Origin: a virus | Length of the DNA: 64,000 nucleotides | Virus record (IMG/VR): IMGVR_UViG_3300045988_107203 | Location: 15,075-79,074 of that record | Reading direction: 5' to 3' (one strand) | Part shown: in pieces, positions 38,939 through 57,507 of the stretch | Position numbering within the stretch: position 1 is the first letter of the stretch | How the letters are laid out: each line of letters begins with the position of its first letter | Made by a program: the position numbers and the translations under genes | Notes under the pieces: generated by a model | What the model was told of the DNA's origin: nothing | What the model saw: only the letters and a program-made list of their open reading frames with translations | Databases searched by the model: none

Positions 38939-38939
38939 C

Positions 38940-40176: not shown

Positions 40177-40364
40177 ATTATTTGGATGGGTATGTAGAAG
40201 AGATTCTTTCCGAGCCGTACTATGATGATTACGGTTCTGGTATTTTTAGGTGGTGGGTGAAAGTGTCTTACATTTGCGAAGGCATAGGAGCTGTCACTAC
40301 CTTAATGTTTGATACGAGAGAAGAAGCAGAGGCAGTAAAACCAGGTTACAAATTTTTATGTTGA
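40173..40364 (+). CDS. hypothetical protein (63 aa)
   Basis: ATGA coupling. Confidence 0.45.
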   Translation: MNYLDGYVEEILSEPYYDDYGSGIFRWWVKVSYICEGIGAVTTLMFDTREEAEAVKPGYKFLC

Positions 40365-40371
40365 AAATAAT

Positions 40372-40608
40372 ATGAAGTATTTTGTTTTATTGATGGCACT
40401 TGTGTTATCATCATGTTCGCATGATGATAGTCGGGTTAATAACGGATGGGTTATATATGATCTACGTCCTTTAGAAGATGGATGTATAATGTATTATGGT
40501 GAAGACGAAGGAATTTCAATATTTTATAATAATAGGCTTATAAAATTCGTTGGATACCAAGGGGAATACAATATAGGAGATTCTATTAAAATCGTAAAAG
40601 TAAAATAA
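40372..40608 (+). CDS. lipoprotein (78 aa) with Bacteroidota-type signal MKYFVLLMALVLSSC-SHDD
   Basis: signal peptide, lipobox Cys followed by acidic export-signal-like residues. Confidence 0.55.
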   Translation: MKYFVLLMALVLSSCSHDDSRVNNGWVIYDLRPLEDGCIMYYGEDEGISIFYNNRLIKFVGYQGEYNIGDSIKIVKVK

Positions 40609-40609
40609 T

Positions 40610-40807
40610 ATGGAAAAGAATTTAAAACCTGTATGTCCAAAATGTGGCACCCCTCACCAGCCTCATTCTCCGCACACGATGGATGCAGATGGATTTGAAA
40701 GGAGTGAGATAAGAACTGTCATGAAAGACAGGGGATGGTGCTACGAATGCTCTTTTGGCAAAATATGTACGACAAGCACAAAGACGATCCAGGATGGGTT
40801 AGGATAG
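40610..40807 (+). CDS. small zinc-ribbon protein (65 aa)
   Basis: CPKCG...CYEC. Confidence 0.5.
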   Translation: MEKNLKPVCPKCGTPHQPHSPHTMDADGFERSEIRTVMKDRGWCYECSFGKICTTSTKTIQDGLG

Positions 40808-41097
40808 ACGGTGAAAGCTGGGTGCTTAAGCCTATGGTAGAAAACGTACCAAGAGGATGGAATAGCCTTGGATGTGGCGGAAGAAAAATGTATGTCAATA
40901 TCGAAGGAAAAGGCATTGTTGTATCAAATAACTGCTGGTGCCAAGGTGATGTTTCGGACGCATTCAAGGATCTGATGCCTGATAATGCTACTTGGGCTAC
41001 GAAGGAGGAATTTGACAAAGCTCCTGTAGTCGGACATATCATAGAAGGTATTGGTTTAGTTTTCACAGATAGGGGAGATCATGAAGTTAATGCTTAG
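40765..41097 (+). CDS. hypothetical protein (~110 aa)
   Basis: internal ATG of track ORF 40735; last plus-strand gene before strand switch. Confidence 0.45.
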   Translation: MYDKHKDDPGWVRIDGESWVLKPMVENVPRGWNSLGCGGRKMYVNIEGKGIVVSNNCWCQGDVSDAFKDLMPDNATWATKEEFDKAPVVGHIIEGIGLVFTDRGDHEVNA

Positions 41098-41121
41098 AAA
41101 CTTAGGTGATTATATACCAAT

Positions 41122-41565
41122 TTACACCAGTACATTTTGACGCTTCACCGTTCCTACCAACGTAGGCAACTCCACGTCCCCTTCCCGGTTCACCACCGGT
41201 GTCTTGTTAATATTTTCTTGGGTTAGAAGATTCTGTTTTTCTAACCCAAATCTTTTAATGTTATTCGCTGCAAGTAAATCACGATCATTGACGGCGCCAC
41301 ATTCAGGACAAGTCCAAATACGATCCGATAATTTAAGATCACGATGAATATACCCACATCCGCACATCTTAGAACTTGGCTCGAATCTTCCGATCCGAAT
41401 TAAATTAACACCGCGCCAATCTGATTTATATTGCAGCATCCTAAAGAACTCGCTCCATGATGCAGAAGCAATTCTCTTAGCAAGGCAATGATTTTTTTAA
41501 CATGCCTCCTACATTAAGATCTTCGATGATAATAGTTTGGTTCTCACTTATATTCCTCTTAGAAT
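41122..41565 (-). pseudogene. tnpB: TnpB C-terminal remnant (RuvC-II, zinc finger, RuvC-III) with homopolymer frameshift
   Basis: ORF 41122-41439 has ...RFEPSSKMCGCG...CPECGAVNDRDLLAANNI; upstream in a different frame IEDLNVGGM (RuvC-II, 41501-41527) and KNHCLAKRIASASWSEF; frames joined across T7 run at 41492-41498 (6 or 9 would be in frame); no N-terminal half. Confidence 0.75.
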
Positions 41566-41830
41566 AGTTGAAAGGAAATTAACTAATGGAGAGGTAGAAT
41601 ATTGGTGCCAATATCAAAACATTTTTGGGAAATGGAAAAACAGGATAAAATACGATATGTTTGGCATGGTGTGTTGAGGCTGTTTTTTTTATTCATTCGA
41701 AGATGCGTATGAATTTAATTATGGTAAGAACAAAGAAGAAAAGGTAAAGGTAGTGGACTCTTGTTACAAGAAAAGATGGTAACTACAACAGTCCCCAACC
41801 ATACAATAGGCGTACGGTTGGGGACTGTTG

Positions 41831-42421
41831 TCATATCGTAAAATTAAGTGTTTTTTTTAATATCAGATATTCAGTATGAACTTTACTTCCGCCATCATCT
41901 ATCAAGTCCAAATTAATATAAGCTGTATATGATACATGATGATCACCAGAAGCAAGACGTTTCATTTCTGATAAGAACATAGAATTTAAACCTTGGCCAG
42001 ACCATGATTCTGGATATGGCAAAGGTGTAAAGTCGGCATCTGTACATCTTATAGTCCAAGTAAGATTAGGATCTGCCCTAACTATTCTATCATGAGGTCC
42101 ATCAATTACAAGGTCTGGCATCTCATATTGGTAACTATCATAATTAAGGACAATAGGATCACCAAAGTTTACACCGTATATAGCAGCAGGTGGAGTAAAG
42201 CTTGTTATTAAAAAGGTTCTATTAATCCTATTGGTTGTTCTTAGCGTAAACCCATCAGGTGCTATCACACTTACTCTAAATCCATAATAAGGAGAGGTTG
42301 TTAAAGCAATAGCAAGAGCTACCGAATCCTGTTCAAGCAATTCCTCTGTCGTATCAACCCTATTATCGATCTCTTGCCTATCTTCCATTGGAACACCGCC
42401 TTGGACACTTATGGAATCCAA
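41831..42421 (-). CDS. hypothetical protein (196 aa), probably virion-associated
   Basis: long ORF in minus-strand block. Confidence 0.55.
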   Translation of the reverse strand: MDSISVQGGVPMEDRQEIDNRVDTTEELLEQDSVALAIALTTSPYYGFRVSVIAPDGFTLRTTNRINRTFLITSFTPPAAIYGVNFGDPIVLNYDSYQYEMPDLVIDGPHDRIVRADPNLTWTIRCTDADFTPLPYPESWSGQGLNSMFLSEMKRLASGDHHVSYTAYINLDLIDDGGSKVHTEYLILKKTLNFTI

Positions 42422-42571
42422 CCGTTCTTTTTTAGACAGAAAGATAAATTGCCCGCCCTGTGGAATGGTGCCTACTTTCTTTCCTTCTACGATTACCCCC
42501 CCCCTATACAGTTACTAACTATTTTATACTCATATAGTTTAGCATTATTTTCAAATCTTCTTCTCATAATT

Positions 42572-43276
42572 TCATAAAATTAATTCAGTAAAAGGACGGA
42601 CATAACGTGAACTACCCCTTGAACCTGTATCCAAATGATCTCCTTGGATGTTTATATCATAATACCACGAATAGGTAAATTGTGTAGATTGAGTGGATGT
42701 CCACATTTTATTACTCATTATCGTACCTCCTACCATTAAAAGGCATTCGTTTATTTCATTCGCATACAATGATATCAAAAAAAACTCTCCGGCGCCACCT
42801 ACATATCCATTTTGACCATTTTTAAATAAATAGCTATTAGCTTTATTAAAAGCGTAATCTGTATTACTGGTATCATATTCAAGATACGCATTCTGATTTT
42901 CACGCCCCCAATAATCCTTTTTAATAGTTCCCATATGAGAACTATCTTGTGCAAATATATTGTCTATTTTTCCATCCTTACCCCAACGAAATGTGCCAAT
43001 ATATTCGGTGGCTATAACAAAACACACTTTATCTACAAGAGCTATTCCATTGCATAGATCATTGGAATATCCTCTATTAGACCAATTTTCTTTTGTATAT
43101 AATCCTCCATCTACATGTTGGATGTATATGCCTTTATTGATTATAAGCGAGGGATTTACCCCCATCCCTATTTGAAATCTTCGTCTCATGATTTTTGTTT
43201 GCAAGATAGCAATAATTGACAACATAAAAGAAACCGGTTCCCTATCATCTCTGACTGAGAACCGGTAAGAAAACAA
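42572..43276 (-). CDS. DUF1566 (Lcl C-terminal)-like domain protein, putative tail fibre/receptor-binding (234 aa)
   Basis: EFFLISLYANE...MWTSTQ...SRYVRPF resembles DUF1566 E-L--L / WSST / vRcVR pattern. Confidence 0.45.
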   Translation of the reverse strand: MFSYRFSVRDDREPVSFMLSIIAILQTKIMRRRFQIGMGVNPSLIINKGIYIQHVDGGLYTKENWSNRGYSNDLCNGIALVDKVCFVIATEYIGTFRWGKDGKIDNIFAQDSSHMGTIKKDYWGRENQNAYLEYDTSNTDYAFNKANSYLFKNGQNGYVGGAGEFFLISLYANEINECLLMVGGTIMSNKMWTSTQSTQFTYSWYYDINIQGDHLDTGSRGSSRYVRPFTELIL

Positions 43277-43402
43277 TTTCAGAAAAAATTAAACCTACAT
43301 AATCTTTCAAGTAAGAACAAAAAACGTACAATCTACTCTTTGACGATGCTAATATAACATATTGGAATCATACAAAAACAATGCAAGTCCGATATTCTTC
43401 GT

Positions 43403-46400
43403 CTACTTGTAGCTAACATCATCGTCCCCTTCCGAATCAGGAGTAGCGCCGATGAAGAACATCATTGACTTGTTGTTCGTCTGCTGCCACCAATTATAGG
43501 CGCGCGCTACGTCTTCCGGCGTCTTGATATTATACCATTGTTTGATAAACGTCTGTTTGGCGAGTTGCCTAAATAACTTAGACTCTCCCTTGTATGTACC
43601 GGATGTTACTTTATCAAGTGAATAATTCCTAAGATCGGTAAGATCCTTCAGCTTCCGTCCCATAACAAACGGGTCGTTAATGATATCTACAACGTTAAGC
43701 TCCATAATAAACGGCATCTGTGAAGCTATTTCGTTTATGGTTCTGAATCCTACATAGGATCCGAATTGAGTAAGCCAACTTTCTTCGTTTTCATCATCAT
43801 CACGCCATCCGGCAAGAAGCATAGATACGGCTTGCATGATAAGAAACGTGCCGGCATAGACACTGAGACGTTTGAGATTGGTTTTCTCTACCTCATTCAT
43901 ATTGTCTTTATTTTCGTTCCAGGCATCTATGATGTTTTTCATACCAGACTCGGAAGCTAAGCTAAATGTTTTGGCTATCATATTCTTTAACGTAATTGAC
44001 AACCCTTCCTCTTCTTGCATTGTCTGGAAATTGAAGCCACGTCTTTTCCACAGACGTTGAGCCGCCAGCACCAACCATCCTCGGTGGGCGGTCATGAACC
44101 TGGCTATCCAGTTGCGCGATGCGGCAGTTCGGTTTTCTTCATTCAAAGATCCGTTACATATCTGCGACAAGCTACGAACTTGATTTCTGGTTATAGCCAT
44201 CTGGGTTTCAACTTCCTCAACAGTAACACCCGATCCTGGCTTTACAACCACCTTCCCATCCACGACGTCTACTATACTCCATAAAGTACGATCTTTTAAT
44301 GCATTCCATTCTCTTTTTATGGTACTCTGTTCTTTATTACGTTCTTTTTCCATCTTGAAATCTTGGAACGTGTAGAACCGGCCTTTGTAATAACGAACAT
44401 TGTCCATAGTAGCAATCATAACCTGCGGATCAAGAGGGTAGTTCAGGATTTCCATAAAAGCATACATAGGCGAACGCATTAAGGTCCTGGCCACTCTATT
44501 ATATCCGGCACCATACATACGATTTCGGATATTGAATATCCCCATTCTCTCACCTATGACATATAATTTGCTTTTCCTATCTATGTCTCCGGTTTCTGCT
44601 ATACAAGATGGAGCAAGGCGTGAAAATTCAGCCGATGCGTATTTAAGGGAGTCTTTGCTTATATACTGTCCTACGGCAGATTCCATGATGAGGTTGATAT
44701 GACCTGTCAGGGCGCCGGTAGCTGCCACAAACGGGGACAGCGCCAGGTTCATGACCGACATAAATCTTTCAACGGCCATCATTATCCTGGTAAGGTCTAC
44801 TGTGTATCCACCGATGTTTACCGTCAGTTTTTTGGTGTTCATCCTAATGCCATAATAATGATCGTTGAAGAAGTCCCTGAACATCTGATATGCTTGGGTT
44901 GCTTCAGCCTTCTTACCGCCTTCAAATTGTTTATTCAGTAACATCTGCTCCAGTCCTTGGGCAAGCTCTATAGACTTCTGCTTTTCGTTATATAACGATG
45001 ACTGCATCATAAGCATCGAATAAGAGTAGCCAAAATCGTGAGATACATCATCTTGGTTCTCCAACTCATATATGTAGTATTTAGGTATAGACCTAAGCCT
45101 GTCTTCCGGATCATACACTTCTCCTTGCCTGGTTTTACCATATAGAGAATCGTCTACTCTGTCCAGGCACAGATCTGATACAAAATTACGAACCGTATTT
45201 TTGAAGTTAATACCCAATCCTTCTATACGTTCTATATCTTGTTTTGATATCTGTGGAATAGCATACAAATTGGGACTCTGCTCTTTGTATAGATCAAGGG
45301 ATTGTCTTTTTATTTCCTTGAGTTTTTGAATCATATTCCACTGCTCTACGTTTTTAGTAGCAACTTCATTACCGTCAGCATCATACTTGATACCAAAGTC
45401 ATTGAAATAAGATTCATCACGATACAGGCTTTTCTTAGGCATTCGATGACCATACCCATGATCTTTTACATAATCAGGATTACGGCCGTTATTTTCGGCT
45501 TCAGATTCAGCCACCCATGCCCTTGCAGGATCGAAAGACAGGTACGATATGTTCATGCCATAATCTTGGGTGGATGTACCGTTTTGCACGTCCTTAACCA
45601 TCTGCGCCACATCTATCTCACCTCGACCTATTTTGTCGATCATAGCCGCATATCCGGTAGGCGCCATGCGTTTATAGTAGGAAAAGACCTGGCCCCTGGC
45701 AAATTCATTAACAATAGCATTAGCTTCTTCTACACCCTCTTCTCTTGTATTATTTAAAAACAAGCTGGCCATCTTAGCATTAACAGCATTCCTAAAATCT
45801 CTACCGTCTAATTCTTTGCTTATACCAAGCTTTTCTGACAGGTAGTTGGTTTCAGATACGGTAAACAGATATCGGTTATCAGCAGCCTTAAACAGCTTAT
45901 CCCTTAAAGCCTGAATCCTTTTTGCTTTCTTCGCCGTAGTATGACGTTGTACGAACTTCCATTCCACTTCCTTGGAGTCAGCAAGAGCATTTAAATAAGA
46001 CTGATTTACTTCGTTTTCGGCCTTACTGCTTTTAGTAAGGTACTTATCAATATCTTCAAGACCCACCATCTTAGCATAATCTATTAAGATAGCGTAATCG
46101 GCTTCAATAGCTTCAGATGCGGCCCTAAAAGCATCTCTTTCAGATGAGGTAAATGTTGCTTCGTTAATCTCTCCGATATCAGCCACATCGCGATTGTTTC
46201 CGATTATTTCCTTGATAATGGCCTTATTTTTTTCTATATCTTTCACAATCGAATCCACGTCAGTCGCATCTCTATCGCTTGTCGTAGAACTAATGATATC
46301 ATGCGCCATTTTAAGATACGAAGCCTTGTTATTTGATTCGGTACGTGCCGACTGTTCTGATTCTACGTCATTCCAAAACCGATCATTAAATGACAGGTGA

Positions 46401-49400
46401 CCTCCCAACATAAGTGTCTTCAGCGCAGCTTCTCCTCCAGACTCGCTCTGAATCGTTCTTAATTTTTGCAAAAACGATTCTGATACGGCATTAGTGGCAT
46501 TATTTGATTCTTTTCTCCAAACTTCATTTATAGCTTGTATTTCTTTGGCCATCTTAAGTTGGTCGCCGGTTTTTTCCACTCTCCTGGTTCCTACATATAT
46601 GTATTCTGAAGCTGCTTCTTTACGTTGTTTACGAAGCAGTCCTTCTTCTTCGTAATTGCTGCTTTTAAAATAGGCAACTTCATCAAAATTACCACCGCTA
46701 TCAATAAAAGGCTGCCTCAGTATCCGTTTTTGCCTGGATAGAGCATTAAGGTATTCTTTGGTTGTTTGAGAAACTGGATGCCCTAATTCTTCTTCAGCCT
46801 TTTTGTATATGGATTCCATTCTTGTGGCATAACTTTCACTAAATTCCAGTTCCGAATTTTCAGCATCCCACTTTTCCATCTGTTCCGTATAGATCTTTTC
46901 CTGCTCGATGGTAAAAATATCGGTATTAACCCTATCAGACGATGGTTTGAATTTAGCGTTTTCAGTAACCGTATTTCCATCCTTGTCAACTACTTCTCTT
47001 TTAAATACGTAATTACGGTTATTGTCAACCACATCACCAATTTCTTCTTCTGATATCTCTATGTTCATGGCAGTCGCAAACGCTCGCATCTGCGCCAGCT
47101 TCTTATTACGATCGTATTTAGCCATATCAAGAGCACTACGAAGGTAATTAGAAGTTTTGCCGTCTACTTTCTGAAGCAGTTTTTCAAATTCAGATTTGTT
47201 AAAACCATGCTTTTTAGCATATGCCAGGAAGTCGGATATGGCGGGCTGGGCATTCACCATCGCATTGTAATTGTCTTTGGCAATCATAGCTCCAAGAGCG
47301 TTATTGAACGGGCTGGAGGAATGTTCTAATATACCGAACCACCTACTTATCCAAGAAACATCGTGTTGAACCTTGTCGAAAAATTCTTTTACTCTCTTTA
47401 CCTTATCTGCCGGCACATGAAGTTCGTTCATTAACTTATCAAGCAACGTACTTTCATCAAGGTCTTGTACTGATTTAATATCAGACTGAATACCATTGAT
47501 GTCGGCAATGACGGTATTGATCCTATTTGTATAATCCTGCTTTTCACGTTCATCAAATTCGGTACTTCTGTTACGGATATATCCTCGAAGATCGTTCATG
47601 ATCGGAAGAACCTGATTGTTGATAATATCTACGTTCTTTCGATCATTGGTATTGAAGTGAAGCTTACCGTCTTTGGTATCACCATGAAGGATGGTGTTCA
47701 CCGCATTACTTAAGTATCTGACCTGAGCTTCGGCTGTGGAGATCATGCTGTTCATGGCAGCCGCCATCTCATTCTTGTCTATTTCGGTCTCTACCTTATT
47801 TATCTTATCTTCTATGGTCTTAAGCTGAGCAAGGGTCATAGACGTAGTTACAGCCCTATCAGAGCTTATCTGACGTAAGTCTCTTAATGTTTTTCTTAGT
47901 GATCTGATCTTGGACTCAAGAAACTTGTTCTTGTTCATAGAAGAAAGGGAGTATAATGTAAAGTCATTATCCTTTAACAGAGAAGTGTCAAATCCTTTAT
48001 CTATGTCAGTAATGGCAAGATCACGAATGTTTTTAATAACGTTATTCAAATCTTGTCTTTGGGTTGATAAAGCTGATTTAAGCCAGCTTACGATTCCAGA
48101 GAAAAGCTGCCGGACGCGCCCCAGGAAGGAGGTGGGCTCTACCGGAGCCTGTGCTGTGCCGGTCTGCATCTCCCTGGCGAGGATCTTTCCAAGAATTTCT
48201 CTCCTAACAGCATTATCAAGCTCAGCTCCTTCATATACCTTACCGTATGTATTATAATACTGACCTGCATACTGGTTCCACTCTTCCGTACCTTCCACAT
48301 CTTGCAGAACAGCCTCAACAGCATTCTGATCTCTGTATGCCTCTACAAGGAAGTGGGCTGTTTCTTCTACTAAATCAGATAAAGTAGCATCTTCACCAAC
48401 TGCTATTACGTTATTAGCAATATCCGCCAATGCCTTAGCAGAAGGTTCGTGCCCGTATTTGGCTTGGTACTTCTCTATATAGTCGGTCATACCTATGACA
48501 CTAACGCCAAGCGTTTTCAGTATCTCGACAATAGAATTTCGTTGGTCACGTTCCTGCCTGCTATAATCTGATACGATCTTAGCTTTAGTATCAGCATAAA
48601 GATCGTTATCTTCTAATATGAATGAAACTACAAGCGCATCAAAATGATCGTACTTGGCGTCCAATTCATTGTATCTTCCTGACTTAAGATCGTTCTTTAT
48701 CTGTTCCCTACTAACCCTTTCCGTTCCTCCGGTGGCGAGTCTCATAGTTACCTTACTGTTATCCGACGAGCTTATGGTTATCATACCTTGGTCGTTCATG
48801 GAAACATCGGAACCAAAATGATTACGGAGCTCGGTGTATGATAAGGCTGAATTGAAAAGTCTAATTTGTCCTGTATAACCTTCTCCTGTAAGATAATAGC
48901 TTCTTGTTTCAGAATCGAATATCTTAGATCCTGATAAAAGACCTTTCTTTATAAGGTAGTTAATTATCCCGCCTTTTGTTGATAAAGAAGTAGAAGCAGA
49001 AGCGGTCATGACCGGTATAAAAGACTTGGGATTATTAAGAACATACTTTCCAGCCTTGTAAGTAATGTCTGCCACTCCATCCACGGTAGATTCTTGAACG
49101 ATGCCTGATAAGAATCCTATTCTGATATCATTCCCGCCAGAGCGAAGAGCTTCTCCGTAATCTTCAAATAATTGATTACGATCATTCATAAAAAACAAAC
49201 GAGGTTCTCCAGTCTGATACGTTACACCCACAGGATTAGAATCTGTTTCTGGTAGCTCTTCTGGACTAAATATCTTAAGACCGTCTTTTATAACCATATA
49301 ATTAACATCATTATCCTGTACCATAGATACGGGAGTGAAGTCCGAAGATATAGCATCTTGTAGATACTGCCCTGAGTCTATTCCTGGTTCTTCCGGCACG

Positions 49401-49825
49401 GAGATACTTGACGGAACCATAGCATCCACCAACATAATATTATCACCCAGATCTTGGCTATAAAATCCAAAGCCTGATTCTTGAATCCCATAAGGTGCAT
49501 CTGATTTCGACACAAGAATAGGGTTGCTCATCTTAGAAGCCTTATCCAGCACCCTTTCTCTATAGGTCTCTGGAATAAGGCCGATGTTAGATTTTACCTT
49601 ATTGTAAGCCTGTTTGTTGATAGGCACATTCCTTCTCCAGTCACCAAAAGCCTTTAAGAACTTGTTGGAAAATACGGTTTTAAAAACAGTAGTAGCCCGT
49701 TCCCTGTTCTCCATAAGAGGAATAGATGCTATTTTATCAAATAACATAGACCTATCCCCTGATCTGGTAGAGACAGAAACAACTTTCTTTTTATTATCTC
49801 TTTTAATAATACACGTTGATGCCAT
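43403..49825 (-). CDS. giant virion-type protein (2140 aa), function unknown
   Basis: single uninterrupted ORF of 6.4 kb; no RNAP DxDGD or other catalytic motif recognised by eye. Confidence 0.85.
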   Translation of the reverse strand: MASTCIIKRDNKKKVVSVSTRSGDRSMLFDKIASIPLMENRERATTVFKTVFSNKFLKAFGDWRRNVPINKQAYNKVKSNIGLIPETYRERVLDKASKMSNPILVSKSDAPYGIQESGFGFYSQDLGDNIMLVDAMVPSSISVPEEPGIDSGQYLQDAISSDFTPVSMVQDNDVNYMVIKDGLKIFSPEELPETDSNPVGVTYQTGEPRLFFMNDRNQLFEDYGEALRSGGNDIRIGFLSGIVQESTVDGVADITYKAGKYVLNNPKSFIPVMTASASTSLSTKGGIINYLIKKGLLSGSKIFDSETRSYYLTGEGYTGQIRLFNSALSYTELRNHFGSDVSMNDQGMITISSSDNSKVTMRLATGGTERVSREQIKNDLKSGRYNELDAKYDHFDALVVSFILEDNDLYADTKAKIVSDYSRQERDQRNSIVEILKTLGVSVIGMTDYIEKYQAKYGHEPSAKALADIANNVIAVGEDATLSDLVEETAHFLVEAYRDQNAVEAVLQDVEGTEEWNQYAGQYYNTYGKVYEGAELDNAVRREILGKILAREMQTGTAQAPVEPTSFLGRVRQLFSGIVSWLKSALSTQRQDLNNVIKNIRDLAITDIDKGFDTSLLKDNDFTLYSLSSMNKNKFLESKIRSLRKTLRDLRQISSDRAVTTSMTLAQLKTIEDKINKVETEIDKNEMAAAMNSMISTAEAQVRYLSNAVNTILHGDTKDGKLHFNTNDRKNVDIINNQVLPIMNDLRGYIRNRSTEFDEREKQDYTNRINTVIADINGIQSDIKSVQDLDESTLLDKLMNELHVPADKVKRVKEFFDKVQHDVSWISRWFGILEHSSSPFNNALGAMIAKDNYNAMVNAQPAISDFLAYAKKHGFNKSEFEKLLQKVDGKTSNYLRSALDMAKYDRNKKLAQMRAFATAMNIEISEEEIGDVVDNNRNYVFKREVVDKDGNTVTENAKFKPSSDRVNTDIFTIEQEKIYTEQMEKWDAENSELEFSESYATRMESIYKKAEEELGHPVSQTTKEYLNALSRQKRILRQPFIDSGGNFDEVAYFKSSNYEEEGLLRKQRKEAASEYIYVGTRRVEKTGDQLKMAKEIQAINEVWRKESNNATNAVSESFLQKLRTIQSESGGEAALKTLMLGGHLSFNDRFWNDVESEQSARTESNNKASYLKMAHDIISSTTSDRDATDVDSIVKDIEKNKAIIKEIIGNNRDVADIGEINEATFTSSERDAFRAASEAIEADYAILIDYAKMVGLEDIDKYLTKSSKAENEVNQSYLNALADSKEVEWKFVQRHTTAKKAKRIQALRDKLFKAADNRYLFTVSETNYLSEKLGISKELDGRDFRNAVNAKMASLFLNNTREEGVEEANAIVNEFARGQVFSYYKRMAPTGYAAMIDKIGRGEIDVAQMVKDVQNGTSTQDYGMNISYLSFDPARAWVAESEAENNGRNPDYVKDHGYGHRMPKKSLYRDESYFNDFGIKYDADGNEVATKNVEQWNMIQKLKEIKRQSLDLYKEQSPNLYAIPQISKQDIERIEGLGINFKNTVRNFVSDLCLDRVDDSLYGKTRQGEVYDPEDRLRSIPKYYIYELENQDDVSHDFGYSYSMLMMQSSLYNEKQKSIELAQGLEQMLLNKQFEGGKKAEATQAYQMFRDFFNDHYYGIRMNTKKLTVNIGGYTVDLTRIMMAVERFMSVMNLALSPFVAATGALTGHINLIMESAVGQYISKDSLKYASAEFSRLAPSCIAETGDIDRKSKLYVIGERMGIFNIRNRMYGAGYNRVARTLMRSPMYAFMEILNYPLDPQVMIATMDNVRYYKGRFYTFQDFKMEKERNKEQSTIKREWNALKDRTLWSIVDVVDGKVVVKPGSGVTVEEVETQMAITRNQVRSLSQICNGSLNEENRTAASRNWIARFMTAHRGWLVLAAQRLWKRRGFNFQTMQEEEGLSITLKNMIAKTFSLASESGMKNIIDAWNENKDNMNEVEKTNLKRLSVYAGTFLIMQAVSMLLAGWRDDDENEESWLTQFGSYVGFRTINEIASQMPFIMELNVVDIINDPFVMGRKLKDLTDLRNYSLDKVTSGTYKGESKLFRQLAKQTFIKQWYNIKTPEDVARAYNWWQQTNNKSMMFFIGATPDSEGDDDVSYK

Positions 49826-49883
49826 AATAAAACATTTTTGTTATGTGACAAAGGTAGCTAAAAATCAAGCATGTCATAAAAAA

Positions 49884-49917
49884 TTAAGCCATCTAACTTC
49901 TCAGTCTGATGGCTTAA
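49884..49917 (-). terminator. intrinsic terminator (10-bp perfect stem TTAAGCCATC/GATGGCTTAA + T6 on minus strand)
   Basis: perfect inverted repeat followed on minus strand by TTTTTTATGA; sits between small-gene islet and giant gene start. Confidence 0.65.
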
Positions 49918-49966
49918 AAATAATATGAAAAAAAATTATAATCTGACGCAAATCGTCAAGTTCAAC

Positions 49967-50287
49967 TTATGTATGTATGTAACCATCTCGGTGAATATAC
50001 CTTCCCGATTCAAAGCGCTCAATATCTTCAGGGCAAATAGGGCCCGAATCTTCTCTCCTGGCTTCAAACCAAAGCCCCGGCTTACGGAGCCGGCAGGTTA
50101 TGACGTATTTAAAGCAGTTGTGAGTAAAATGGAATACGGAGCCTACTGGGAAATACCTGGTAGTTTGAAACACTATTCTTTTTCGTTTAGTATCAAACAC
50201 TATATCTCCTACTACCTTAGTCACGTAATAGCTTATGCCATTTAACGTTTCATCTGTCTGCGGTATCCAATAATAACCTCGTGCCAT
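49967..50287 (-). CDS. hypothetical protein (106 aa)
   Basis: tiled minus-strand ORF. Confidence 0.5.
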   Translation of the reverse strand: MARGYYWIPQTDETLNGISYYVTKVVGDIVFDTKRKRIVFQTTRYFPVGSVFHFTHNCFKYVITCRLRKPGLWFEARREDSGPICPEDIERFESGRYIHRDGYIHT

Positions 50288-50315
50288 GCCACAAATATAA
50301 AAAAAATCGGATAAC

Positions 50316-50627
50316 TTACGTACCCGACTTTATTATTTGTTTAAATAGTCCAATTTCATCTATTTTTACATGACCGCTTTGCATACGACCATTATTAGGA
50401 TTGTAAAGAAAATTGAAACTACTTTCTTTTTCCTGTCTTTCAAAAGAACTGATATCCTTTCCTCTACGGGCTCTTTCAAAAGCTTTCTTGAACAACTTAC
50501 CTCTAAAGGTATTGACGAGGATCTTGGTAGCGTTATTGCCGGCTTTTACCATTGTTTTCCTTGTCTGGTCCTCCGAGACAAGGAAAACATACGATGCTGC
50601 TGCTTGTATGTCTTGTTTAGTAATCAT
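50316..50627 (-). CDS. hypothetical protein (103 aa)
   Basis: tiled minus-strand ORF. Confidence 0.5.
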   Translation of the reverse strand: MITKQDIQAAASYVFLVSEDQTRKTMVKAGNNATKILVNTFRGKLFKKAFERARRGKDISSFERQEKESSFNFLYNPNNGRMQSGHVKIDEIGLFKQIIKSGT

Positions 50628-50974
50628 ATGATAAACATTTCTTTCAGAATACTGATCTTTATTCCGTATATCAATTTCATCTCATCTCTATCATATACGT
50701 CAAAAAAGGATTCACTGGGGTCCTTTGGATTTACGTTCAATTGAATTATGCAATTACCAGTATAAACCTTAAGCCTATAATTATCGGAGTATATATTCTG
50801 CATGATTTCAAATGTCTCAATTAAATTTTCAACAAGTGCTCTGTTAAATGAAAAAGATTCTTTACCATCACCTTTAAATGTGATATGATCTAAATCCCTG
50901 TTGTCAAATTCATACTCTAATTGATTGCCGTCCATCATATCATAAAATATTGACTTTCTGATTATAAATCCCAT
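50624..50974 (-). CDS. hypothetical protein (116 aa)
   Basis: ATGA coupling. Confidence 0.5.
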   Translation of the reverse strand: MGFIIRKSIFYDMMDGNQLEYEFDNRDLDHITFKGDGKESFSFNRALVENLIETFEIMQNIYSDNYRLKVYTGNCIIQLNVNPKDPSESFFDVYDRDEMKLIYGIKISILKEMFII

Positions 50975-50991
50975 ATTGTTTTATTTTTTAG

Positions 50992-51297
50992 TTAATACAA
51001 ATCTTCTGAATACAACTGTTCTCTAATGGCATTCCTATCTACCACCATCTCCTGATTATTGTTTCTAACAAGTTCAGACGCTTCCTCTCTTGTTAAAAAC
51101 CGGTTCTTGCTTGTCAAAAATCCTTGAACACTGCGGTTTTTATGAGCTATACCGTATGCCGCAAGTTGCGATATTATGGAACAGTGTCTCAATCCACAAA
51201 ATACGGTTCCAGATGGTATATTTACTGGACCGTGAGGCTTGTTCTTGTAATCTTGAACCCAGATAGCTGCGCATATAACAATTTCCTTATCACACAT
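50992..51297 (-). CDS. hypothetical protein (101 aa)
   Basis: tiled ORF. Confidence 0.5.
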   Translation of the reverse strand: MCDKEIVICAAIWVQDYKNKPHGPVNIPSGTVFCGLRHCSIISQLAAYGIAHKNRSVQGFLTSKNRFLTREEASELVRNNNQEMVVDRNAIREQLYSEDLY

Positions 51298-51300
51298 AAA

Positions 51301-51591
51301 TCAATAATTTAAAATACCATTTTTACCAATATGCTTCTTTTCTTCTTCAGTAGGCCATTCCTTCTTGAAATTACCATGCCACGTTCCAGGAACTACCACC
51401 AATTCGTCCCCCTTACTATATTCAATAGCGGCACATTCAGAACAAAGAGGCTTGCCTTCATATCCCTTTAGCGACTTATCGTAAATACGATTCTTACAAG
51501 GTCTTATAAGAGCCCAGTAATATGATGTGGCTGTATTATCTATACAGCCACACTTTGAACATACAAACAAACTCATTTCGTAATCTCCCAA
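51301..51591 (-). CDS. zinc-ribbon protein (96 aa; CSKCGC...CSEC)
   Basis: two CxxC pairs. Confidence 0.5.
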   Translation of the reverse strand: MGDYEMSLFVCSKCGCIDNTATSYYWALIRPCKNRIYDKSLKGYEGKPLCSECAAIEYSKGDELVVVPGTWHGNFKKEWPTEEEKKHIGKNGILNY

Positions 51592-52337
51592 TCATTCGAC
51601 GATATATCTTCTATACTTGGGTTCCACGATGTCAGCCTCCGTGTTTCTTCATTTATAATTATGATCAATGACTTTTCCATATGAATTGAGCTAACACCAC
51701 TTCTTCTAAAAGCATCAAGATGTTCATTTTTCCATCCACGTCTTTTGATCATATTACCACCTTTCAGGAATTTAAAAGCTTCTTCAAATGTTAAACCTGA
51801 CTTCTTTTGATTAAGATACTGTTCAAGTCTGTCGGCAGCTTCATTTGGTGTATGGCCATCGTATTCGAAAGCGGTTTCTCTTTCAGGAACATCAAACAAA
51901 TCCCAGTATTTGCTTTCATAGTGATTAGATACCTGACCGGTAGGTAGGATCGCCATCACAATAAACCAATCATCAGAACCGAAGCATTTTTCTCCGTCAC
52001 TGTGCTTTCTTGATTTGCAAACTTCAACCTGTCCGTTTCTGGCTAATAGATTAAAGAAGGCGGCGTTATACAACATGCGGTACCGATACAATTCATTGAA
52101 AGTATGGTATCCATCAGAAACCTCTCCCATGTCTCCAGGTTCTGCTTCAGGTTCAGGATGATTCGGGTAGTGGTAGTCTACTGATGCCTCTAACACGGAC
52201 TTTACGTGTTCCATTACCCTCGTAGCATCATCATGTTTAAAAAAATGCTTAATTCCTTCAACGAATTTAATATCTTCGTTGATTGCTGATTCGAACTCTT
52301 CTTTAGTCATTACCCTGACTGAATCTTTTAATTCCAT
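51573..52337 (-). CDS. protein with C-terminal DUF2829 (Tad2-like) domain (254 aa)
   Basis: C-terminus LTFEEAFKFLKGGNMIKRRGWKNEHL...SWNPSIEDISSNDWEI matches DUF2829 pattern FGEAlealKqGkkvaRkGW...W-pSq-D-la-DWEiv. Confidence 0.55.
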   Translation of the reverse strand: MELKDSVRVMTKEEFESAINEDIKFVEGIKHFFKHDDATRVMEHVKSVLEASVDYHYPNHPEPEAEPGDMGEVSDGYHTFNELYRYRMLYNAAFFNLLARNGQVEVCKSRKHSDGEKCFGSDDWFIVMAILPTGQVSNHYESKYWDLFDVPERETAFEYDGHTPNEAADRLEQYLNQKKSGLTFEEAFKFLKGGNMIKRRGWKNEHLDAFRRSGVSSIHMEKSLIIIINEETRRLTSWNPSIEDISSNDWEITK

Positions 52338-52567
52338 TATTTGTAATATTTTAATTGTTCTGAAATCCTATATTTACTTATATCATCGCACAAGTTACAC
52401 CCTCCTGTACATCCACAAATCAAACAATACGAGTCTCTTTCTGTCTTCGATTTGGATTGAAAATCTCTTACGGCTTTAATCCAGATAGGAGAAATAATCT
52501 TACCGGAAAATACAGGTACATCTAAGATTAATGTTTCCATTATTTTGGCAAAATATTCATATAACAT
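52337..52567 (-). CDS. small Cys-rich protein (76 aa; CLICGCTGGCNLC)
   Basis: tiled ORF. Confidence 0.45.
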   Translation of the reverse strand: MLYEYFAKIMETLILDVPVFSGKIISPIWIKAVRDFQSKSKTERDSYCLICGCTGGCNLCDDISKYRISEQLKYYK

Positions 52568-52755
52568 GGCACATCTACCACATCTCTTCTACGAAGTTCC
52601 TTATCAAAATAAGAAACTATATAAGTGTTTTTACCTTCGTGATCAGGTCTGGGATCAAAGCATTCAAAAACGAATCTTGTTCTACCTTCAAGATGACCAA
52701 ACATGAAAACAAATTCGCCACCGTATCTTTTATTAGCCAATTCTTCTACAGTCAT
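52540..52755 (-). CDS. hypothetical protein (71 aa)
   Basis: tiled ORF. Confidence 0.45.
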   Translation of the reverse strand: MTVEELANKRYGGEFVFMFGHLEGRTRFVFECFDPRPDHEGKNTYIVSYFDKELRRRDVVDVPCYMNILPK

Positions 52756-52979
52756 AACCTATCCCCTCCTAATCCTGAATTGATGCTAACATACTTAACA
52801 CGGACATCATTTCCACGTCCAAGCTGACCCCATCCGGGCGATGGCGTTCCCTTAGCCGGAGCAGGGACAGCCCTAAGCCGAGACCAGTCCTGCTTTTGCC
52901 TCATGGCTTCAGCCTCTTTATAATACCGGTTGCACAGTTCTTGATCTTCGTAACCAACGTAATCTTCCTTATTTTCCAT
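52752..52979 (-). CDS. hypothetical protein (75 aa)
   Basis: ATGA coupling. Confidence 0.45.
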   Translation of the reverse strand: MENKEDYVGYEDQELCNRYYKEAEAMRQKQDWSRLRAVPAPAKGTPSPGWGQLGRGNDVRVKYVSINSGLGGDRL

Positions 52980-53048
52980 ATAGAATAGTTTTTCAACAAA
53001 TGTACGACATTCATAAATTAATTAGATTTAAAATAAAACAATATGAAT

Positions 53049-53084
53049 TAAAATAAAAACCCGATACGTTAAAATCGCATCGGG
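53049..53084 (-). terminator. hairpin CCCGATGCG...CGTATCGGG + T-rich tail on minus strand
   Basis: inverted repeat followed (minus strand) by TTTTTATTTTA. Confidence 0.5.
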
Positions 53085-53447
53085 CCTGGTATTGAAAAAA
53101 AATAGGTTCAGATCTTGGGTAAAGATTCGAGCCAATTTTTAACATCTTTATATTTAGGGTCTTTGTCTATTCTATCTTTCAGTTCATGCAATGCTGAGTC
53201 CATAACCGTATTCGGTACGCCAATCAACTCTCCTATTAAATACAATGGGGTTTTATTCGATTTAGATTCGTGTGCTATATTCATGTCAAAAAAAAGTTAT
53301 GTGAAACAAACCGGCCACGGGTATTCTATTGCCCGCCGACCGGTATAATATTTTTATTCCTTTTTTTCCAAACGGGAAAAACGGGAATGCGGGAATCATA
53401 TTTTTTACTATGGCTCCCGCACCACCGGAAGGACCTGGATCTGGATC

Positions 53448-53741
53448 TCAGGTCAGATCCTTCCAGTTTATTTTTTCGCCGAGGTAATCTTGCACGGCAA
53501 GCCATCTTATAAAGGCTACTCCTTCGGGAGCATCCGGATCATCCAAATACATTAACGTAGCTTTCACCAACTCGTTCTCACATTTGAAGACCTTCGGAAA
53601 ACCATCCGAATAGTACATTGCAAAGACATATTGGACATCGCCCCATGTCGCTTTATCCGGCTTCTTCGCTCCGCACTTTTCAAAAATATCTTTTATTTCC
53701 GGCTGCTTCCAGATCCTCTTGGATCCATCGACGTTGACCAT
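53448..53741 (-). CDS. hypothetical protein (97 aa)
   Basis: ORF in track. Confidence 0.45.
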   Translation of the reverse strand: MVNVDGSKRIWKQPEIKDIFEKCGAKKPDKATWGDVQYVFAMYYSDGFPKVFKCENELVKATLMYLDDPDAPEGVAFIRWLAVQDYLGEKINWKDLT

Positions 53742-53819
53742 CTTCTTTACCGCCTCATCAGCGAGAGCATTAGAAAAATGGTAGCCGTAAGTATCTACAT
53801 ATTTCTGATAAGCTGGATC

Positions 53820-54558
53820 CTCTGCGTCTGCTCCTCAATAAGAACGACCTCTGCCACGTCCGCGACCTCTACGCATCTGAGGTCCGTCACCGTAGTATCT
53901 GTCGTCTCCATTTGTACCACTGATTTACTGATTTCATAACCCGTCCGTTTATAATGAAAGAATTAACTACATTACTAATACATGAACATAAATTATTCAA
54001 TCCTAAATCAATCGAAAGAAAATTGTCTTTATCTAAACCAAGATCAGCTTCCTTTCTTTCATAAACTACCTCTACTACATAACAGGTAGCTTGAGGTATG
54101 ATTCTAACTTGTTTTAATTCATCTTTCTTTACATTTGTTTTGATTGATTCGATCACGTTTTTAACAAAATGAATATGATTATCATCTTTTATCCTGCAAT
54201 CACAGTTAGTAAAAACAACCATGTTTTGTTTCTTACCTCGTTTGTATGAAGGTAGATGAGGACGATGATTACCATATTTTGAAGGATTCTTTTCAAAATC
54301 TTTCTTTAATCTCATCCAGGATTTTATATTTTTAAATACCTGTTTAATCACCTGCTGTGAAACATGATTAGGCAAATTCCTGAAATCGAATTGGTTTTCT
54401 TTGCAAAGTTTGTTTGATAAATCAAATTCCTTTAAATAGTTACCAGAAAATATTTCTTGACGGATATTGTAAAGAACATAATTGTACAACAAACCTGATT
54501 TGAGGCAAATATCCTCAAAACGGTTGTCTTTAACTATATGTCTTTCAACTAATCTCAT
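53820..54558 (-). pseudogene. tnpB: TnpB N-terminal remnant (HTH-like region + RuvC-I), truncated/frameshifted
   Basis: ORF 53887-54558: NRFEDICLKSGLLYNYVLYNIRQ, RuvC-I LSIDLGLNNL; after stop a +1 frame gives GPQMRRGRGRGRGRSY (cf. GSNNRRRR of intact TnpB) then ends; RuvC-II/ZnF/RuvC-III absent here. Confidence 0.7.
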
Positions 54559-55221
54559 TTGAATGATTTATGATATGAATATAATCATTTTTAATAAGAT
54601 GAGCAAAATATTACACCATCTCGTCGTTCATTGTTTCTGGAACAAAAATAGGAACAGGATCTTAAATAGCAAATATTTTAATACTTCTTAAAACAAACCA
54701 GAGCCCGCATCACTGCGAGCCCTGATCTCTAAACTAATACCATGAAAAACTTAAATCTAAAAACTAAAGAACACACAAATGTATGAAAATGTATGGTTTT
54801 CACAAAGAATCTGTATCCTGTTCTTTTGTGTGATTCAAGACATGGGATATAGTTCTGATACTTAATCCGGTTTGATTTTGTATCAGATTATAAATATAGG
54901 ATTTTGAAACTACAGTTCTTAATTGACCTAAATCATTCATAATGTTTTTATACATAAGATGAATGCTGTTGTTACGTTTGATGGTACTGATTCTCATTTC
55001 CTACTGTTATTAGTTACGTTCGGTTCTTACTTTTTCCTTATTTCCATAATCCCTTCCTGAAACTAATATTGCAAACTTAATAAAAATAATTCATAAACAA
55101 TGAAAATCTAACTTTTCTTGTATGTTATTGATATACGTACATATATGAGAAAAGTGAGACTTTCACAAGCCTCACTTCCCAAATTATAACTATGAAAAAA
55201 CTATATATATGTATACAAAAA

Positions 55222-57480
55222 TTACCTGCATTCCAATTTATTAAGATCATCCAATTCAGACTTGCTTACGGTTATATCTTGCGTCAAGCCAGATCTGTTT
55301 TGGTATGGAGCGTAATCAGTTTCTACCGTCTTAGCCTTCTGAGTAGAATCGTATTTCACCTCCGATTCGGTTCCTGTCAGATTTTGGTAGATAGAGCCGG
55401 AACTACTCTCGCTTACTTTAGACCATATCTTATTACCTACTCTTATAAAATTATCATAAATACCTTCGGCTGTTATAACACCATCTTGCTCTACGATATT
55501 AGGGCCCGATTTTTCTTTTAACAGATACGGGTGCCTGGTGTAAAAATAGTGTTCAAAATCATTCCCGGCATACGAAGAGTCATACTTCTCCAAATAAAAC
55601 AATTCTGATAAAGAAGGGTCGGTACTGGTCATGCTATAATCAAACAACATCAACCTGTCTTTTCCAGATAAAGATAATTCTATTGATTTCAAAATATCAG
55701 GATCATCAGAAATAAGGCCCAAAGATGGACCAGGTTTGAAGTCAAGATACTTATAGGCATTATCATATAATTTTGTTTTATGGAGTTTGTTGTCAAGGTA
55801 AGATTGGTATAAATCGAATAAGGATAATGGGTTTTCGCTATCTTGTTTTTTGTTCATGTATCGACTATACTCCCGATCCACATCCACGTAAGGAACGTCA
55901 AGTACCTCCGGGTGCCCAAACGCCATCCTGGTCATTATCATGTCCTCTGTGTTCTGAGAATCCATGAACGATCTGACGTATTTTTTAATGGAATCCATGA
56001 GCGTATTATTATCTACGTTCCGTACTTTCTCTTTATCCAAAACGCCGTTCTTAAAACAAGATTCAGGATATATTTTAGTAGAAAAATGAGTTAGGTTGTG
56101 CTTGGCTAACACTGTTGATATTTGATACATCTCGTTAAGATCATCTTTGCTGATCCTTTGATATAGATTATCTCCTACCTTAAGCAATGAATGTTTCTCA
56201 AATGCCTCTACTGGGTCTATATCGGATTCAGAATAAACGATATTCAAATTATTCATATACTCCGGTAATAATCCAAAATAATAATCTGTGCTATCACCAA
56301 GAACATCATCTATAGAAGATGCCAGCGTTGGAGCATAATTTACATCATTATGCCTGGCCACATAAATATCAAGATCCAGCATCAAATTATCTATCTTATT
56401 CAAAGATTCTTCTGTGCCATCATAAGTTTCCGATGTCCCTATTATATCTATGCCAAACCACGTACAAGCCTCTTCTATATCCCATATCATGCTTCTTAAA
56501 TCGGATTCGGTGTCGGCATTAACCCTATGTAAATAAGCTGATATACGAGCTCTTAGGAACTCTATTTTGCCAGGATTGTAATAAGACAGATCTTGTAGCT
56601 TAGACAAGGATCTTCTCTTGCCTTCTACCACATCATCCCCTTCTATGTTTATTACCGGAATCTTATTCGTAGATGAAAACTCATCAAACATAGATTCGGC
56701 AAATTCTTTATCAGAAACGAATTTCTCAACCAGTTCAGGATATGAGTTTCTCAACGATTCAAAAGCAGATGAAAATTCAGAAAAGTTTTTTATGCCAGCT
56801 ACTGTTTTACGCATAGCATAATAAAGCTCAGAAGGATTATATGGTACTTTTTTACCAAATTGGTTAAACACTCCCTCCTTGTAAACAATAGGACCATACT
56901 GATAGTCAATAGACATAAAATAATTATCTTTTTCCCTATCATGTTCGTTAATAGAAGAATCTATTAACTTTCTCATGGAAGTCGAAACCTCGTTTAAAAC
57001 AGAAGGATCGGATAAAATACGACTTATTTCTGTTTCATCATACAAACCGGATCTCCTTAATTTCTGCTCATTCAGTATCAAACTGCCATCTACATAAAAA
57101 TCGAAGAGAATAGCATTAGACAATGAAGACGCATTGAAAAAATAATGAGTAGACAAAAGGAAATCCCTTACATCCTTAACATCCTGAGCCGTTAAAGGAT
57201 CAGCAAAATAAGTCTGACGCTTCATATACGACAGCACATCTTCTAAAAGAGGTTCGCCATTGGGATCGGTGTTAAATATCTCCCCTGGAGCCGGGTTATT
57301 CCAATGACCGTAATACGACAAAAAACCAGGAGTGTAAGCCTTAGCCCATACCTGAAGAGCCCGCTCGCTGTTTCCTAATACTTTTAAAGCACTTTCGTAA
57401 AGAACGGAAGGCTCCCCGTTAGGAGCCTTAACCCGTTTTATTTCATTTTCCTTTTTTTCTATCTGACATTTGACACCCAT
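55222..57480 (-). CDS. large virion-type protein (752-759 aa), unknown function
   Basis: track ORF begins at TTG 57501; first ATG at 57480. Confidence 0.75.
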   Translation of the reverse strand: MGVKCQIEKKENEIKRVKAPNGEPSVLYESALKVLGNSERALQVWAKAYTPGFLSYYGHWNNPAPGEIFNTDPNGEPLLEDVLSYMKRQTYFADPLTAQDVKDVRDFLLSTHYFFNASSLSNAILFDFYVDGSLILNEQKLRRSGLYDETEISRILSDPSVLNEVSTSMRKLIDSSINEHDREKDNYFMSIDYQYGPIVYKEGVFNQFGKKVPYNPSELYYAMRKTVAGIKNFSEFSSAFESLRNSYPELVEKFVSDKEFAESMFDEFSSTNKIPVINIEGDDVVEGKRRSLSKLQDLSYYNPGKIEFLRARISAYLHRVNADTESDLRSMIWDIEEACTWFGIDIIGTSETYDGTEESLNKIDNLMLDLDIYVARHNDVNYAPTLASSIDDVLGDSTDYYFGLLPEYMNNLNIVYSESDIDPVEAFEKHSLLKVGDNLYQRISKDDLNEMYQISTVLAKHNLTHFSTKIYPESCFKNGVLDKEKVRNVDNNTLMDSIKKYVRSFMDSQNTEDMIMTRMAFGHPEVLDVPYVDVDREYSRYMNKKQDSENPLSLFDLYQSYLDNKLHKTKLYDNAYKYLDFKPGPSLGLISDDPDILKSIELSLSGKDRLMLFDYSMTSTDPSLSELFYLEKYDSSYAGNDFEHYFYTRHPYLLKEKSGPNIVEQDGVITAEGIYDNFIRVGNKIWSKVSESSSGSIYQNLTGTESEVKYDSTQKAKTVETDYAPYQNRSGLTQDITVSKSELDDLNKLECR

Positions 57481-57507
57481 AGTGATTAACTTTTTTTGCA
57501 AAGTTAA

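Follow-up and report, generated by a model that had tools for sequence, protein, structure and literature searches.

Two TnpB remnants 12.3 kb apart in a human-gut phage genome are very probably the leftovers of two unrelated elements

Two incomplete tnpB genes lie 12.3 kb apart in a stretch of viral DNA of 64,000 nucleotides (positions 15,075 to 79,074 of the IMG/VR record IMGVR_UViG_3300045988_107203). We refer to the whole stretch as the window and use its coordinates throughout. Both fragments are on the minus strand. Read along that strand, one holds only the N-terminal part of a TnpB protein and the other, further on, only the C-terminal part. Are they two pieces of one gene? The initial annotation of the window offered two answers: a single ancestral element of the IS605 family that was split when about 12 kb were acquired or rearranged, or two independently decayed copies. 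Our results bear out the latter. We are highly confident that the fragments come from two unrelated TnpB elements, which were inserted independently and were each shortened by a deletion of its own. Below, these elements and their relatives are called N-type and C-type.

The N-terminal remnant includes the following features. The bounds of the element were obtained by comparing 80 IMG/VR loci.

53912 to 54617, minus strand: N-type TnpB remnant, left end plus tnpB codons 1-215; the complete element is about 1288 bp
54559 to 54617, minus strand: left end of the remnant (multi-locus comparison)
54558 to 53912, minus strand: tnpB codons 1-215, 100% identical in DNA to the copy at locus L002
53887 to 54558, minus strand: open reading frame (ORF) of 223 codons plus a stop (coding part 54558 to 53890); 215 TnpB codons followed by a hybrid codon, 7 codons out of frame and the stop
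53911 to 53912, no strand: deletion junction; in comparison with L002, 3125 bp (L002 6648-9772) are absent
53835 to 53911, minus strand: tail of a truncated 122-aa phage gene, last 25 codons (..GDDRYYGDGPQMRRGRGRGRGRSY) and stop, homologous to csAssE-Sib (L001) 15688-15764
54618 to 54620, minus strand: GAT, a conserved target trinucleotide resembling a target-adjacent motif (TAM), directly 5' of the left end

RuvC-I (SIDLG) is the only part of the RuvC triad in this remnant. The TnpB sequence stops at codon 215; nothing is left of RuvC-II and RuvC-III, of the guide-RNA region or of the right end. In Pfam, residues 177-215 partially match OrfB_IS605 (profile positions 15-53 of 120, covering SIDLG); the score of the fragment alone, 26.2 bits, is under the cut-off of 30.5. 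The fragment can be assigned to TnpB by homology through the protein of L002 (IMGVR_UViG_3300045988_091011, a near-identical phage contig). The first 215 residues of that protein are 100% identical to the fragment, and the full protein scores 62.3 bits with OrfB_IS605 and 32.3 bits with TNB. The initial annotation had recognized a TnpB N-terminus through RuvC-I, which stands, but placed it at 53820-54558. The TnpB part is 53912-54617, and 53835-53911 belongs to the tail of a phage gene.

Homologues of the N-type protein are abundant, and the complete ones are 395-396 aa long. The C-terminal half of the N-type protein reads IIIGLNKEWK..HEESYTSK..NADINGAIGIARK..NPVRLNIL. Its RuvC-II (IIIGLNKEWK) has a glycine where the canonical glutamate sits, with a candidate alternative glutamate downstream (HEESYTSK), and its RuvC-III motif is NADxN (NADING). 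Neither a zinc finger nor an HTH_OrfB_IS605 domain was found in complete N-type relatives by Pfam and motif inspection.

The C-terminal remnant is organized as follows.

41105 to 41561, minus strand: C-type TnpB remnant, tnpB codons from about 257 to 402 (RuvC-II with its glutamate, zinc finger, RuvC-III), stop codon at 41122-41124 and right end; the complete element is about 1332 bp
41551 to 41561, minus strand: 5' deletion junction within an imperfect 11-nt direct repeat (backbone AAGAGGAATAT, tnpB AAGAGGATAGT)
41492 to 41498, minus strand: homopolymer A7 (T7 on the plus strand), frame-shifting; A6 is the in-frame state

The minus-strand translation from 41561 to 41125 contains ..SENQTIIIEDLN..CGCG..CPECG..NDRDLLAANNI.., or, as a longer string of motifs, ..SENQTIIIEDLNVGGMLK / NHCLAK..CGCGYIH..CPECGAVNDRDLLAANNI..RQNVLV and a stop. 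The fragment is homologous to TnpB and holds RuvC-II (IIIEDLN), the zinc finger (CGCG..CPECG, i.e., CxxC..CxxC) and RuvC-III (NDRD), all three of which had been named by the initial annotation; the bounds given there, 41122-41565, become 41105-41561. The match to the Pfam family Cas12f1-like_TNB is full (69.9 bits vs the 26.3 cut-off). The fragment is not a complete protein in one frame: its first codon is about number 257 of 402, a start codon is lacking and the A7 run shifts the frame. In the complete element at L083 it corresponds to positions 876-1332, with 98.3% identity. Complete C-type relatives have 402 aa, start with MIKGYKYRL.. (HTH_OrfB_IS605) and carry IIIEDLN, a CxxC..CxxC zinc finger and NDRD (DRD).

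The translations confirm that both remnants are on the minus strand and lie in N-to-C order. They do not make up one protein. Complete N-type and C-type proteins are 21.6% identical and differ in motifs and domain sets; they belong to different clades. When the two are aligned jointly, residue 215 of the N-type falls opposite residue 210 of the C-type, and the first codon of the C fragment, C-type 257, corresponds to N-type 254. The residues represented in neither fragment number about 38 in N-type numbering or 47 in C-type numbering, and not about 25 as first proposed. Besides, L002 with its complete N-type gene and L082 with a truncated C-type gene come from the same contig, and therefore both coexist in one genome.

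Full-length counterparts of each fragment are found at its own site in close relatives. At the left junction of the N fragment, L002 has a complete intact gene of 395 aa, and over positions 1-709 of the L002 element the window fragment has the same DNA sequence (100% identity). Collinearity between the window and L002 extends to L002 position 6647 and resumes at 9773. The 3125 bp in between contain tnpB codons 216-395, the right end, genes for proteins of 354, 137 and 164 aa and, of the 122-aa gene, the first ~97 codons. The breakpoints show weak similarity only (TACAAT and TACTAT).

For the C fragment, L164 (Logan ERR11027293) has the upstream flank of the window (43539-41550, 94%), then 12 bp (GAAACAAGTTTC) and then the full 1332-bp C-type element; its tnpB is of full length but split by an A5 frameshift. 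L107 carries a complete C-type element with an intact 402-aa ORF, and L082 a 929-bp remnant with another upstream deletion; both share the right-end flank with the window. The ~888 bp missing at the 5' junction of the C fragment comprise the first 256 codons of tnpB and the left end, along with 12 bp of flanking DNA. The 11-nt similar patch at this junction is what a microhomology-mediated deletion of ~888 bp would leave.

The DNA between the fragments gives the third line of evidence.

41562 to 53911, no strand: interval of 12.3 kb between the fragments, native backbone with a 2140-aa gene, a WDGH/Tad2-like gene and small genes

The source of the window is a human-gut phage of about 150 kb and of csAssE-Sib type. 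The csAssE-Sib genome (OR575929.1, L001 in our numbering) is 96% identical to window positions 40.5-55.5 kb, with 85% covered; the literature on csAssE-Sib yielded nothing usable. A base-level alignment of the window with this genome was used to assess synteny and empty sites. Window segments 38924-41100 and 41550-41836 match csAssE-Sib and bracket 449 bp, i.e., the C fragment, that are absent there. Segment 42546-53911 is collinear with csAssE-Sib at 90-97% identity. The N fragment (53912-54617) stands in place of 3.4 kb of csAssE-Sib, and the next collinear block is 54618-57515. The only non-collinear part of the interval is a replaced patch of 0.7 kb (41837-42545). Neither TnpB fragment is present at either site in csAssE-Sib. 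The interval is collinear in a genome without either fragment, and it is therefore native. It is neither cargo nor an insertion but ordinary phage backbone. The initial annotation had proposed a comparison with related genomes lacking the insertion; csAssE-Sib lacks both remnants and keeps the 12 kb. A false lead is thereby removed: captured DNA has not split any gene, and the giant gene is not enclosed in a composite transposon.

The following course of events would account for the locus. An N-type element of ~1.29 kb, carrying TnpB only (395 aa), would have been inserted directly after GAT 54618-54620 of a csAssE-Sib-type phage. An illegitimate deletion of 3125 bp would then have taken the 3' 45% of this element together with about three and a half downstream phage genes, leaving the left end and codons 1-215 and no nuclease centre, guide RNA or right end. 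Independently, 12.3 kb away, a C-type element of ~1.33 kb with a 402-aa zinc-finger TnpB, terminal inverted repeats (TIRs) of 26 bp and an 8-bp duplication would have been inserted. This element was probably shortened by a deletion of ~888 bp between two imperfect 11-nt repeats that took codons 1-256 and the left end and spared the last 146 codons together with the right end and a guide-RNA scaffold, which is intact. Presumably neither remnant is able to cut DNA or to move.

How strong is the case for a single element split by about 12 kb? It has in its favour that the fragments lie on one strand, N-part before C-part, without overlap and with a gap of ~38-47 residues. According to our rough estimate, two random breakpoints would give a non-overlapping gap of 47 residues or less in roughly 1 case in 10; the local genes around both fragments all point the same way. 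The layout is a coincidence. A split is contradicted by the different TnpB clades of the fragments with their 21.6% identity, by the full-length counterpart of each at its own site, by the synteny of the 12 kb in csAssE-Sib and by the contig with a complete N-type and a truncated C-type gene. Both observations by which the initial annotation would have had the split abandoned, different subfamilies and separate full-length elements in relatives (L002 for the N fragment, L164 and L107 for the C fragment), have been made, and we give the split practically no chance.

It is also very improbable that metagenome assembly produced the truncations artificially, for instance through chimeric joins or collapsed repeats. 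The assembly is of metagenomic type, and the A-run at 41492-41498 does vary: it is A7 in the window, A6 in L082, L083 and L165, and A5 in L164 and L166. The length differs among near-identical assemblies, so the run is either polymorphic (hypervariable) or a recurrent assembly error. The initial annotation had rightly pointed out that T7 breaks the frame and that a run of six would restore it; in the window A7 is without consequence, the C fragment already being short of 256 codons. The truncations are another matter. The exact 223-aa ORF occurs with the same neighbour genes on five contigs, the three listed being from three different samples. The sequence of L165, a contig of another sample, agrees at 100% with window 40012-42351, i.e., across the junction of the C fragment, except for its A6. 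These two observations mean that the arrangement is real. Furthermore, the N-fragment locus is found with a further nested deletion in L163.

A distinctly unlikely alternative is that one or both remnants are kept for a function. The orphan guide RNA could be used in trans by the C-type TnpB of a co-infecting phage, or the 223-aa protein could bind RNA or DNA. In line with this, all five guide-RNA helices and the right end are intact in the window, the ORF of the N fragment is open and unchanged across samples, and 5'-truncated C-type copies recur in IMG/VR (L082, L096, L100, L110, L114, L122, L139, L145). On the other hand, the truncation points of C-type copies vary from locus to locus, the N-fragment locus is still eroding in L163, and the window has no cognate C-type TnpB. 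A selection test would be uninformative because the copies compared differ too little.

Several observations weigh against the origin of the fragments from two separately eroded elements. Their lack of function is inferred, and both an intact guide-RNA scaffold and an open 223-codon ORF persist. The 5' deletion of the C-type element ends merely 12 bp outside its left end, which the 11-nt patch explains but does not prove. Finally, no single genome compared has a complete C-type element with both window flanks: the left flank comes from L164, and the right one from L107 and L082. We nevertheless regard the remnants as the product of ordinary transposon decay. The locus is a well-resolved case of transposon erosion in phage genomes, with both junctions defined to the base and full-length counterparts in sister genomes.

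Some further copies deserve mention. In L163 (10001-10936; Logan ERR11570713, another sample) an extra deletion of ~180 bp joins TnpB residues 1-203 in frame to a downstream DUF7841 protein, with a product of 311 aa; the N-fragment locus is eroding further there. In another phage of the clade, a complete C-type element with 98% identity (L083 5113-6444) lies inside the equivalent of the 12-kb interval. It replaces ~250 bp (csAssE-Sib L001 13056-13308), the equivalent of a 101-aa gene at window 50992-51297. Many C-type copies have no matching flanks. A search with the C-fragment protein gave only proteins of at most 246 aa, as if a natural family of mini-TnpBs existed. This was rejected, as most IMG/VR copies are intact 402-aa genes; the short matches are fragments or genes with miscalled starts. 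In both the N-type and the C-type family, most IMG/VR copies have intact ORFs and lie at many different sites; both families are active elsewhere.

The family label IS605, given to both fragments by the initial annotation, fits the N fragment and does not fit the ends of the C-fragment family. The left end of the N-type element is at window 54617, and its right end in L002 is ~40 bp beyond the stop codon. The ends are short and asymmetric and form no inverted repeat (13 matches of 40). Whatever the site of a copy, its flank ends in GAT. In L005 an N-type element is precisely inserted between TTTTTAGAT and TTAAG without target duplication, and the same place is uninterrupted in the window. Having no TIRs, no target duplication and a fixed short motif 5' of the insertion, the element behaves in the manner of the IS1341 group (IS200/IS605 family). 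Neither the window nor its flanks showed a Y1 TnpA, and no tnpA adjoined the N-type copies inspected, no search aimed at TnpA having been made.

Precise insertion without duplication after a short motif is IS200/IS605-like behaviour (PMC4810608, PMC13565253), and ISDra2, the reference for the comparison with the IS1341 group, targets TTGAT (PMC13565253). The N-type element resembles this group in its single tnpB, short asymmetric ends and precise insertion 3' of ..GAT without duplication. It differs in its rearranged TnpB (RuvC-II glutamate to glycine, no zinc finger), and the window copy is a dead 5' fragment. A motif pattern of this kind is described for 'derived' TnpBs with rearranged RuvC-II by Altae-Tran et al. 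2023 (PMC10691335). The RuvC-II glycine, the alternative glutamate candidate and NADxN make the N-type similar to the RIIr-5-like 'derived' clades treated there, a likeness judged from motifs only.

In different phages, N-type copies are found at three different GAT sites within ~140 bp (L002 5821-5870 and 7223-7270; L005 and L028 at ~5935; window 54618-54790). L002 has a diverged copy (86%) of 48 bp of the hairpin region described below just 3' of the N-type element, and the antirepressor gene is missing there. This suggests that recombination between element copies has swapped the N-type flanks.

The C-type ends are different, and they are the only part of the locus that merits a further look. 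The features at the right end are given here.

41105 to 41128, minus strand: right TIR of the C-type element (plus strand GGTGATTATATACCAATTTACACC), the only copy of the repeat in the window
41097 to 41104, minus strand: right-hand copy of the 8-bp target duplication (TAAGTTTC); L164 has CAAGTTTC before the left end, and the empty site of csAssE-Sib a single TAGATTCC
41113 to 41249, minus strand: scaffold resembling a guide RNA (omega RNA), overlapping the 3' end of tnpB, with all five helices intact

The element is bounded by TIRs of 26 bp (GGTAATTATATACAATTTTACACC on the left, ..GGTGTAAATTGGTATATAATCACC on the right) that agree in 20-23 of 26 positions in closely related copies and in 18 of 26 in the more divergent L107. 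Among the loci compared, 22 distinct insertions with these ends have perfect AT-rich target duplications of 8 bp. With both TIRs and duplications, the C-type differs from IS200/IS605 elements. The same TIRs bound non-coding units of 183-452 bp, units of 1344-1347 bp with a different TnpB having the RuvC-II glutamate-to-glycine change (L102 1760-3106), and units of 2.8-3.5 kb (L217, L254, L259) with an IS1595-family DDE transposase and passenger ORFs. In the latter three, the TIRs are the longest inverted repeats and enclose a 307-309-aa protein that scores 145-154 bits with PF12762. Loci with the shared ends include L085, L086, L102, L111, L116, L217, L254 and L259.

The C-type shares its TIRs and 8-bp duplications with the PF12762 units and is therefore best read as a non-autonomous IS1595-type transposon with TnpB and guide RNA as cargo. 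It would be mobilized in trans by an IS1595-type transposase; in the window, neither such a transposase nor a second copy of the C-type TIR was found. The trinucleotide AAA stands exactly 8 nt upstream of the left end in 13 of 31 flanks, compared with a 5% background, and thus resembles a TAM. The short non-coding copies have a similar TAA-N8-TTA pattern, and AAA may reflect the target preference of the transposase and not a TAM of TnpB. The literature on the end consensus of IS1595 and ISNwi1 yielded nothing usable. In the ISNwi1 subgroup the ends are ggnnatTAT and the repeats 8 bp long; the C-type ends may resemble them.

The C-type family was found in phage contigs only. Among 185,579 bacterial and archaeal species genomes its TnpB has no close relatives, the only match being a Streptomyces protein with 34% identity.

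Terminal inverted repeats starting with GGTGATTAT and AT-rich 8-bp duplications are common to the C-type and to IS1595-family insertion sequences with their miniature inverted-repeat elements, and the same ends occur on the 183-452-bp units and on the 2.8-3.5-kb PF12762 units with passengers. C-type units differ in that TnpB and guide RNA take the place of the transposase. It is known in general that some TnpBs have a DDE partner and symmetrical ends and that solo TnpBs also occur with such ends (PMC10691335). The C-type is like them in having TIRs, a tnpB 3' end within 20 bp of the transposon end and ends matching those of transposase-bearing elements. It differs in its IS1595-family partner (PF12762), its 8-bp duplications, its 'typical' TnpB with DRD and zinc finger and its confinement to phage contigs. 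The main text of PMC10691335 names IS630 as the sole DDE family and does not name IS1595.

The C-type may represent an undescribed partnership, in which a canonical TnpB with its guide RNA is the sole cargo of a non-autonomous IS1595-type element and which occurs only among large gut phages. We put this forward tentatively and consider it rather doubtful; the comparison was with the main text of PMC10691335. If, as proposed below, the guide starts with the duplicated 8 bp, a coupling unseen in IS605 elements would exist between DDE-type transposition and RNA-guided homing. In any case, a TnpB family on IS1595-type and not IS605-type ends bears on how RNA-guided nucleases move between transposon superfamilies.

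No Rfam family matches the C-fragment region, and the guide-RNA scaffold was therefore established by covariation. In an alignment of the last 240 nt of 21 members of the C-type family, the structure has 5 helices with 35 pairs, 9 of them supported by compensatory changes; pairing holds in 98.6% of cells, compared with only 30-46% in slid controls. The scaffold ends at the right TIR, and its place and form are those expected for the omega RNA of a TnpB. The flank adjoining the C fragment would supply the guide; with a scaffold reaching as far as the right TIR, the guide segment would begin with the 8-bp duplication (41097-41104). Since there is no cognate TnpB in the window, it is doubtful that the guide RNA functions.

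Being TnpB-derived sequences presumably without nuclease activity in a phage context, the fragments resemble TldRs, the domesticated nuclease-dead TnpBs (PMC10705468). TldRs, in contrast, have a full-length fold, a point-inactivated or trimmed RuvC and a conserved guide RNA, whereas the window fragments lack half of the protein and have variable truncation points.

Next to the N fragment lies a hairpin.

54695 to 54728, minus strand: GC-rich stem-loop with a 15-bp stem followed by a T-rich tract, -24.9 kcal/mol, z = -4.9

The initial annotation had noted a hairpin at 54701-54723 as the possible left end of the insertion sequence. The stem-loop is real, but we rejected it as the end of the element: it lies 78 bp beyond the true end at 54617, in the backbone block 54618-57515 homologous to csAssE-Sib. 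Most likely it terminates transcription of the 65-aa gene lying upstream; a simple terminator scan did not call it.

Of the genes reported earlier between the fragments, we recovered the 2140-aa ORF (43403-49825) and the DUF2829/Tad2-like gene, whereas DUF1566 has no Pfam match in the two ORFs adjoining the giant gene. The Tad2-like gene (51573-52337, minus strand) encodes 254 aa with a WDGH domain (125 bits) and a C-terminal Tad2-like (DUF2829) domain in Pfam; stand-alone Tad2 proteins are shorter. The label Tad2-like is the name of the Pfam family (Thoeris anti-defense 2-like).

A tblastn and blastn census of the window detected one further TnpB locus only (20979-22117), which represents a third family with 31% identity to the C-type. 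It had been described as intact. The reading frame of this copy (20979-22226, plus strand) shifts between CPACG of the zinc finger and NDRD of RuvC-III, and the long ORF continues into unrelated sequence; the frameshift could be a sequencing error or real decay. At 33024-33262 (plus strand) the window matches the Rfam HEARO RNA with 111 bits (gathering score 83). HEARO RNA is the guide RNA of IscB-type nucleases, and the window therefore also carries an IscB-type element. Altogether, at least three families of TnpB occur in this phage clade, along with a guide RNA of IscB type. In csAssE-Sib, positions 45751-47816 (L168) are annotated in the record as a diversity-generating retroelement (VR/TR repeats and a reverse transcriptase) beside a putative tail-fibre gene.

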